A stretch of DNA of 64,000 nucleotides from assembly GCF_058153355.1 (NCBI RefSeq), contig NZ_CM177019.1, one strand, 5' to 3'. How positions within the stretch are numbered: the stretch's first letter is position 1; every line of letters starts with the position of its first letter. Made by a program: the position numbers. This document shows positions 3,001 to 6,000 of this stretch, in pieces.

Positions 3001-6000
3001 GTTATATCGCCGTATGATAAGTTCGGTGATTAATAACGCACACACAAACTTAAAGAAACCGTAAGTTGGTAAAGTTTTTAAAGTTTATGCAATATCCTGC
3101 CGCTTCGCTGCTTCTGCCGTCATTTTTTTGCCAGCTGTTGCTTAAAAGTTAACTTTACTTCACCATCAATGTCCTGTTCAGCCTGTGGCTGCCTGTCGGA
3201 AAAGGGGTAAGTATGATTACGCTGTGGGGTCGGAATAATTCAACCAACGTAAAAAAAGTATTGCTGATGCTCGAAGAACTGGAACTACCTTATGAGCAAA
3301 TTCTCGCGGGCCGTGAGTTTGGGGTAAACCACGATGCTGATTTTCTGGCGATGAACCCTAACGGGCTGGTGCCGTTGTTGCGTGACGACGAAAGTGATCT
3401 CATCCTTTGGGAATCAAATGCCATTGTCCGCTATCTGGCGGCACAGTATGGGCAAAACCGCCTGTGGATCGACTCACCGGCACGCCGTGCAGAAGCGGAA
3501 AAATGGATGGACTGGGCAAACCAGACGCTCAGTAATGCCCATCGCGGGATCCTGATGGGATTAGTCAGAACACCACCGGAAGAGCGCGATCAGGCCGCCA
3601 TTGATGCCAGTTGCAAAGAGTGCGACGCCCTGTTTGCCCTGCTCGATGCGGAACTGGCAAAAGTAAAATGGTTCTCTGGCGACGAGTTTGGTGTGGGCGA
3701 TATCGCTATCGCTCCGTTCATCTACAATTTATTTAACGTTGGCCTGACCTGGACACCGCGTCCAAATCTGCAACGCTGGTATCAGCAACTCACTGAACGC
3801 CCCGCAGTGCGCAAAGTGGTGATGATCCCCGTTAGCTAATTGCGTGGGCTAACTTTAAGTAATTCCCCACTGGACTCGTCGGTGAGAACGTATAAATAAC
3901 CGTCGGGTCCAGTGCGAACATCACGAATTCGCTGCCCTCTGTCCGTTAAAATACGGCCATCTTCTGTCACTTTGTCGCCGTTGACGCTCATCACAATGAC
4001 ATCTTTATCTTTCAGCGCGCCAATAAATAATTTTTGCTGCCACTGGGGGAATTTATCGCTGTTATAGAAGGCCATGCCGCTCACGGCGGGCGAATCTTTC
4101 CAGTAAAAAACAGGTTGCTCGGTCCCGGCGACGATCTCCCCTTTCGCTTCCGGTATCTTAAATCCCGAATAGTTGATTCCCCAGGTTGCCAGCGGCCAGC
4201 CGTAGTTTTTGCCTTTTTGCGGGATATTAATTTCATCACCACCGCGGGGGCCATGTTCATTTAGCCACAGTGCATTACTCCAGGGATTCATCGCCATTCC
4301 TTGCGGGTTACGAATACCATAAGACCAGATCTCGGCGCGTGCATCGGATCTCCTGGCAAAAGGATTATCATCCGGGATCTCGCCCTAGTCAGTAAGACGC
4401 ACCAGTTTGCCCTGTAATTTATCCAGATCCTGCGCCGTCGGGCGCTGATTGTTTTCGCCCAGAGCAATAAAAAGATAACCTTTACCGTCGAATACCAGCC
4501 GCCCGCCAAAATGGTTGCCGGTAGACAGTTTTGGCATCTGGCGAAAAATGGTGCGGAAGTCGGTCACTTTTGAGAGATCATCACTTAAACGACCATACCC
4601 CACGGCAGTTCCGGCTTTGCCATCATCGCCAACTTCGGAATAGCTTAACCAGATGCGGCGCGACTGGGCAAAATCAGGTGCTAAAGCCACATCCATTAAG
4701 CCGCCCTGCCCGTGCGCCCAAACTTCCGGCACTCCGGAAAGCGGCGCAGATAATCCTTTTCCTGCTTGCCAGCGACGTAACTCACCGCCGCGCAGGGTGA
4801 TTAACATGCCGTGATTATCAGGTAAAAAGGCCAGCGCCCAAGGGTGAGCGAGTTTGTCTTGCAGTACCTCGACATTTACCGTTGCAGGAGCCGCCCAGAG
4901 AGCGGAAGAAAGACAAATAAGGGGCACAGAGAAAAAGAATTGTCGATGCATAACGCCTCCGGATTGACTCTGGCTTAAAGCGTAGTCAGTGGAGGCGATA
5001 ACAAATTCATTTTTACAAAAACTTAAACATGAAGGGGGAGACGCTTTCTCCCCCTTAGTTTTCAGGCCTTCTCAAGCATGGCGTGCTTCTGCAGGCTCTG
5101 GATACTCAGCGTTAAGCTCATCAGACAATTTTCAAGCTTATCGGCGTTGACGGTAATAACAGTCGGGCAATCATGGTGCCCACTCATCAAACATACTGCG
5201 GCTGTCGCTAATGCTTCTTCAGCATGATGAAGAGCACTCCACTCTTCCTGATCCAGATGAAGATTCAACCGCAGCGATTTATCGTGCAGTTCGCGATTCA
5301 GTTTAAAAAAGTTATCTCGTAGATGATTGCTTTCGCTGACGGACATGTATCCTTTTGCCTTCCTCAGTTGCACGTATGCGGCGAGGTCAACGCGTGCGTC
5401 GATCAACCGGTTCAGCAGGTCGATTCGCTGTCTGTCAACGAACATACTTCGATCCTCCTCTTTCCAGCCTTGTTGCAATTAAATAGTATGGCTATTTTTT
5501 GAGCAAAATGCTGTCCAGGATCAATTCTTCACGCCGAATTAACAAAATTTACATTTCCTTCGCCTCCGCCAGCGAATGAGATTGCGATACAAATTTTATC
5601 CAGAACTCTGTAGAATCCCTGCCCTGACCTTTCCTGTAACTGAATATTTTTTAAGCTATGAGCAAAGTAACTCCCCAGCCGAAAATCGGCTTTGTTTCCC
5701 TTGGCTGCCCGAAAAACCTTGTCGATTCAGAGCGTATTCTCACCGAACTACGCACTGAAGGTTATGACGTGGTACCGAGCTATGACGATGCGGACATGGT
5801 GATCGTCAACACCTGCGGCTTTATTGACAGCGCGGTACAAGAATCACTGGAAGCCATTGGTGAAGCGTTGAATGAAAACGGCAAGGTAATTGTGACCGGT
5901 TGTCTGGGGGCAAAAGAAGATCAGATCCGCGAAGTCCACCCGAAAGTGCTGGAAATCACCGGGCCTCATAGCTATGAGCAGGTTCTGGAGCACGTTCATC

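Follow-up and report, generated by a model that had tools for sequence, protein, structure and literature searches.

A probably recent yliI pseudogene in a divergent Escherichia lineage, with an in-frame amber codon at a former Dcm site

Escherichia coli makes no PQQ and relies on an external supply of it. Two of its enzymes are known to be PQQ-dependent, and one of them is YliI (Asd), the soluble aldose sugar dehydrogenase, a periplasmic protein with broad sugar specificity and typically low abundance (PMC13088180). The E. coli protein has been crystallised (2G8S) and belongs to the Pfam family GSDH (PF07995). Losses of its gene through single lesions can also be seen in public sequences. An unrelated nonsense allele, G114* (GGA>TGA), occurs in an otherwise full-length yliI that is 4-6 nt from the K-12 gene, and is found on E. 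coli contigs whose samples and sources differ (24 contigs read, 58 index blocks listed), while several deposited genomes hold frameshifted YliI products that diverge at a T5 run encoding YLF(I); some of these frameshifted records may be assembly errors. The other described system that is close to the present locus is the set of amber hotspots in lacI (Coulondre, Miller et al. 1978), where G:C-to-A:T changes fall at the second C of CCAGG by way of 5-methylcytosine deamination (PMC12606429). In this report we describe a natural yliI allele that touches on both of these systems, weigh the explanations for its internal stop codon, and consider what its loss would mean for the organism.

The window, by which we mean the whole stretch of DNA analysed, comprises 64,000 nucleotides of contig NZ_CM177019.1 in RefSeq assembly GCF_058153355.1. 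It carries yliI at the same locus and with the same length of 371 codons as the E. coli YliI (Asd) known from 2G8S and PF07995, and it differs from that gene in having TAG instead of CAG at codon 189, which would leave residues 1-188 only. The features that the argument needs are listed here, with the evidence for each in brackets.

3836..4951, minus strand: yliI, predicted pseudogene of the PQQ-dependent soluble aldose sugar dehydrogenase (gap-free alignment, GSDH, 2G8S)
4385..4387, minus strand: amber codon TAG at codon 189, ancestral CAG (translation and relatives)
4384..4388, no strand assigned: former Dcm site (plus strand CCTAG, relatives CCTGG)
4388..4951, minus strand: translatable N-terminal fragment of 188 aa (ORF list, GSDH profile)
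3836..4384, minus strand: 3' remnant, predicted to be untranslated, codons 190-371 and the stop (includes the ORF 3836..4297, which begins at a chance internal ATG)
3213..3839, plus strand: gstB, intact and convergent with yliI, overlapping its 3' end by 4 bp (ORF list, annotation in relatives)

A preliminary description of this DNA had named the gene yliI, soluble aldose sugar dehydrogenase, and the identification is borne out by family profile, structure and gene order alike. Aligned with the annotated yliI of K-12 (b0837) and of 2020CK-00188 the gene shows no gap across 1116 bases, and it stands 52 nt apart from the K-12 allele (95.3% DNA identity). When Q189 is restored, the protein matches GSDH over residues 34-366, covering profile positions 1-332 (E=3.3e-134), and 2G8S over residues 21-370 (E=6.2e-238); the order bssR-yliI-gstB is that of K-12, 2020CK-00188, R32_14_1F and EC42405. 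Translation of the minus strand gives 371 codons and a terminal TAG with a sole internal stop at codon 189, a TAG at 4387..4385 in the context ...CTT ACT GAC TAG GGC GAG ATC..., and this confirms what had been reported at the outset, a lone in-frame TAG at 4385-4387 in a gene that is otherwise of full length. The two ORF fragments reported with it, 4385..4951 (188 aa) and 3836..4297 (153 aa), do lie in one common frame; the second, however, does not delimit the in-frame remnant, as position 4297 is an internal ATG and the remnant starts at 4384. Comparison with the yliI of close relatives had been proposed as a check, and the alignment shows CAG (Gln) at codon 189 both in K-12 and in 2020CK-00188, the latter being the complete E. 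coli genome that came nearest among those compared. At base 4387 the three closest relatives agree with one another and differ from the window, the change being C>T on the coding strand and G>A on the plus strand.

The lesion appears to be young. Compared with three relatives, the yliI of the window has private changes of which 6 are synonymous, 1 is missense (D35A) and 1 is nonsense, and the frame 3' of codon 189 is fully open as far as the terminal stop. Because a gene long released from selection would hold more replacement changes than this private ratio of 6 synonymous to 1 missense, the pattern argues that yliI was inactivated recently on the scale of lineage divergence. A separate difference from K-12 is found in the loop of residues 199-203 (window 4339..4357, codons 199-204), which reads ARRSD(A) in the window and IKESG(A) in K-12. 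Since the ARRSDA variant is also present in the intact yliI of 2020CK-00188, it is, as judged from these alleles, a polymorphism of the lineage and not decay that followed inactivation.

As to the protein, a functional member of the GSDH family requires an open frame across the full domain, and such a frame is absent in the window yliI. Of the 332 GSDH profile positions, the N-terminal product of 188 aa spans 1-154 and the ORF that begins at the internal ATG (3836..4297) spans 186-332. The crystallised chain of 2G8S begins aligning at YliI residue 21, and approximately residues 1-20 form a putative signal peptide that would be retained in the N-terminal fragment. We take the 2G8S fold to be a single six-bladed beta-propeller. 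Loss of function is predicted because the stop leaves the putative signal peptide and under half of the only GSDH domain; neither a half-propeller nor a C-terminal half without signal peptide should be able to act as an enzyme, and the oxidation of sugars with PQQ and Ca2+ that marks the family is expected to be absent. On its sequence, then, the window yliI is a GSDH-family pseudogene and not a functional member. Polarity on a downstream gene of the operon is excluded, because gstB is convergent and intact.

The surroundings of the stop codon bear on how it arose. The ancestral coding sequence GAC-CAG-GGC contains a CCAGG, the mutated base is the second (internal) C of that motif, and the outcome is CTAGG, so that the plus strand at 4384..4388 reads CCTGG in the relatives and CCTAG in the window. 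A C-to-T (G:C-to-A:T) transition took place here, and it agrees with a Dcm hotspot both in the base of the motif and in the direction of change. With the lacI amber hotspots it shares the second C of CCAGG as the mutated base and the step from CAG to TAG, whereas yliI is represented by one natural allele of a wild lineage and the lacI hotspots come from a laboratory mutant spectrum. The reconstructed yliI offers 139 possible nonsense substitutions, 43 of them transitions, and only 3, the observed one included, fall at a Dcm-methylatable C. A coincidence would accordingly have a probability of about 2% if all substitutions are taken as equally likely (3/139), and about 7% among transitions (3/43).

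Dcm activity is a general trait of E. coli and is assumed here for the window strain, the dcm and vsr genes lying outside the 64-kb window. The most likely origin of the TAG is 5-methylcytosine deamination at a putative Dcm-methylated C. In the course of events that we propose, the second C of the CCAGG in codon 189 would have been methylated by Dcm, and its spontaneous deamination from 5-methylcytosine to thymine would have given CTAGG. The mismatch would then have escaped the very-short-patch repair of Vsr, with Gln189 CAG becoming fixed as TAG, and translation would end after residue 188, so that no PQQ-dependent aldose dehydrogenase forms.

A real mutation that owes nothing to methylation, either a replication error or the deamination of an unmethylated cytosine that happened to lie in CCAGG, is a possible but doubtful source of the same allele. 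Across the first 20 kb the window has 92 private differences from the three relatives, and C>T together with G>A make up the commonest class (38 of 92), which speaks for this explanation. Of these differences the yliI stop alone is at a Dcm cytosine, and 51 CCWGG sites remain in that interval. Over the whole window 4 of 312 methylatable CCWGG positions (1.3%) differ from 2020CK-00188, a rate equal to the background of C>T/G>A changes at 411 of 31,045 G/C positions, and there is thus no window-wide excess of C>T at Dcm sites in this comparison. Because that excess is lacking, the attribution to a hotspot rests on the one site together with the chance probability of 2-7%, which is not negligible. 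Against an origin independent of methylation, base, motif, direction and the step from CAG to TAG all fit the documented 5-methylcytosine amber hotspot (PMC12606429), and a context of this kind is open to so few (3/139) of the nonsense substitutions of yliI.

The same base also invites the suspicion of a sequencing or assembly error, for example a base miscalled at a Dcm-methylated CCWGG in a long-read assembly, in which case the gene would be intact with CAG. The preliminary description had left a recent nonsense mutation and a sequencing error side by side, and of these two the former is now favoured and the latter disfavoured. It is true that the change is of a single base exactly on the methylatable position, that DNA modification causes strand-specific nanopore errors (PMC11610603), and that the allele is absent from all 5,426 complete E. 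coli genomes, where a TAG-bearing 61-mer centred on the stop has no match; 16 of these genomes keep the flanks of the 61-mer and show a single mismatch, and every one of them lists yliI at the match without marking it as a pseudogene. A 35-mer around the stop, in which the mutated base was allowed to be C or T, has no match in the GTDB species-representative genomes, and the exact reconstructed Q189 protein of the window allele is absent from a collection of 15 billion proteins. The public protein collection nevertheless includes the exact 188-aa fragment, with Logan assemblies as its source, and 3 Logan contigs carry the sequence for it. The contig of run SRR28786219 shares the TAG and has 99.993% identity to window 1..14951; a SNP at 14354 is the sole difference, and the window has there the ancestral G of all three relatives. 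The TAG is thus carried by a second assembly, which came from a different pipeline, although the run may not be independent of the data behind the window.

The neighbouring sequence also speaks for a genuine mutation and against an error. In 49 of the 51 genes compared with a relative's annotation the frames are intact, with alignments that are gap-free or in frame, the exceptions being yliI and fiu; no frameshift and no other point stop occurs in the 51 genes checked, fiu being interrupted by an IS element. The remaining CCWGG sites are unaffected; the first 20 kb has about 52 sites, of which 1 carries a private change, and a systematic assembly error at Dcm motifs was rejected because the CCWGG differences equal the background. 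Current basecalling models reach about 99% per-read accuracy at CCWGG (PMC11610603), and a consensus would correct what remains. An error at this base is on these grounds improbable.

It is far less probable again that yliI is still functional, whether by amber readthrough, through a suppressor tRNA or in a programmed manner, or as a split enzyme made of two fragments. The downstream frame is wholly open, and translation of a C-terminal fragment could conceivably begin at the internal ATG at 4297; an open frame is, however, expected in any case after a recent mutation with 6 synonymous changes to 1 missense, a C-terminal fragment of a periplasmic enzyme would lack the signal peptide, and neither fragment spans the single GSDH domain. 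Amber suppressors are rare among natural isolates. An ARAGORN search of the 64-kb window finds no amber suppressor tRNA, which also counts against this possibility, and suppression is probably absent from the window strain. The sole call of that search, a tRNA-Gly(GCC) of 85 nt at 51643..51727 (minus strand), is almost certainly a false positive, as it lies inside the intact coding sequence of dinG (51323..53473). Should the TAG be decoded after all, whether through a naturally occurring suppressor tRNA or because readthrough is efficient, with full-length YliI still being made, which we regard as very hard to credit, the lineage would be one that tolerates or even uses UAG suppression. Taken as a whole, the reading that we favour with good confidence is that yliI of the window strain is a recently formed pseudogene, produced by a genuine C-to-T change that was likely a 5-methylcytosine deamination, and that its loss has been tolerated.

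Several other features of the window are worth recording. Its second inactivated gene is fiu, which encodes a catecholate siderophore receptor (plus strand, approximately 43402..47123); unlike yliI it owes its inactivation to an IS element, a 1,438-bp insertion at 43696..45133 that encodes a 448-aa IS4-type transposase (Pfam Nterm_IS4, DDE_Tnp_1) and separates codons 1-98 (43402..43695) from the remainder (45134..47123). A further insertion relative to 2020CK-00188, of 1,282 bp at 26154..27435, lies between a DUF1479 gene and ybiT and encodes a 326-aa IS110-family transposase (26263..27243, minus strand). This element is 99.6% identical to copies annotated as 'IS110-like element IS621 family transposase', which are present in 2,244 of the 5,426 complete E. 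coli genomes at a median of 5 copies. At 53757..55769 the window carries a 2,013-bp type III effector gene, which is annotated in its relatives. An Rfam scan of the window gives only two matches, both to naRNA4 (REP/BIME-type) and both intergenic, at 19326..19403 (minus strand) and 48885..48955 (plus strand); neither is near yliI, and such matches are ordinary for E. coli. Identity to the best of the 5,426 complete E. coli genomes is 96-98.6%, and per-gene identity to 2020CK-00188 is a mosaic that ranges from 93.6% (ybiV) to 100% (ybiI, mntS). Because identity to the best complete genomes reaches only that level, the source of the window is, by this sequence measure, a divergent lineage of Escherichia, one that the complete genomes represent poorly.

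The tolerance of the loss can be placed beside the other null alleles. The G114* and T5 frameshift alleles and the Q189 TAG are all single-lesion losses, and they differ in position, type of mutation and lineage. A stop at codon 189 was not found in the other truncated YliI proteins of the public protein cluster, which are T5-run frameshifts, G114* products and fragments at contig ends. The yliI gene appears dispensable, because the unrelated G114* circulates and YliI is of low abundance (PMC13088180). An enzyme that is periplasmic, scarce and in need of external PQQ, with no downstream gene in its transcription unit, could be lost at little cost, and the loss is plausibly near-neutral. The part of bioRxiv 10.1101/2022.06.07.495086 that bears on the point is consistent with E. 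coli depending on external PQQ.

For annotation, the locus should be given as one yliI pseudogene with an internal stop, in place of two separate genes. This nonsense pseudogene is of an ordinary kind and raises no new biological question, and its significance beyond correct annotation is very small. Within these bounds the yliI TAG would serve as an illustration from nature of the amber hotspot that textbooks describe at CCAGG, and it further supports the view that Escherichia can dispense with yliI, given that at least one other nonsense allele circulates.
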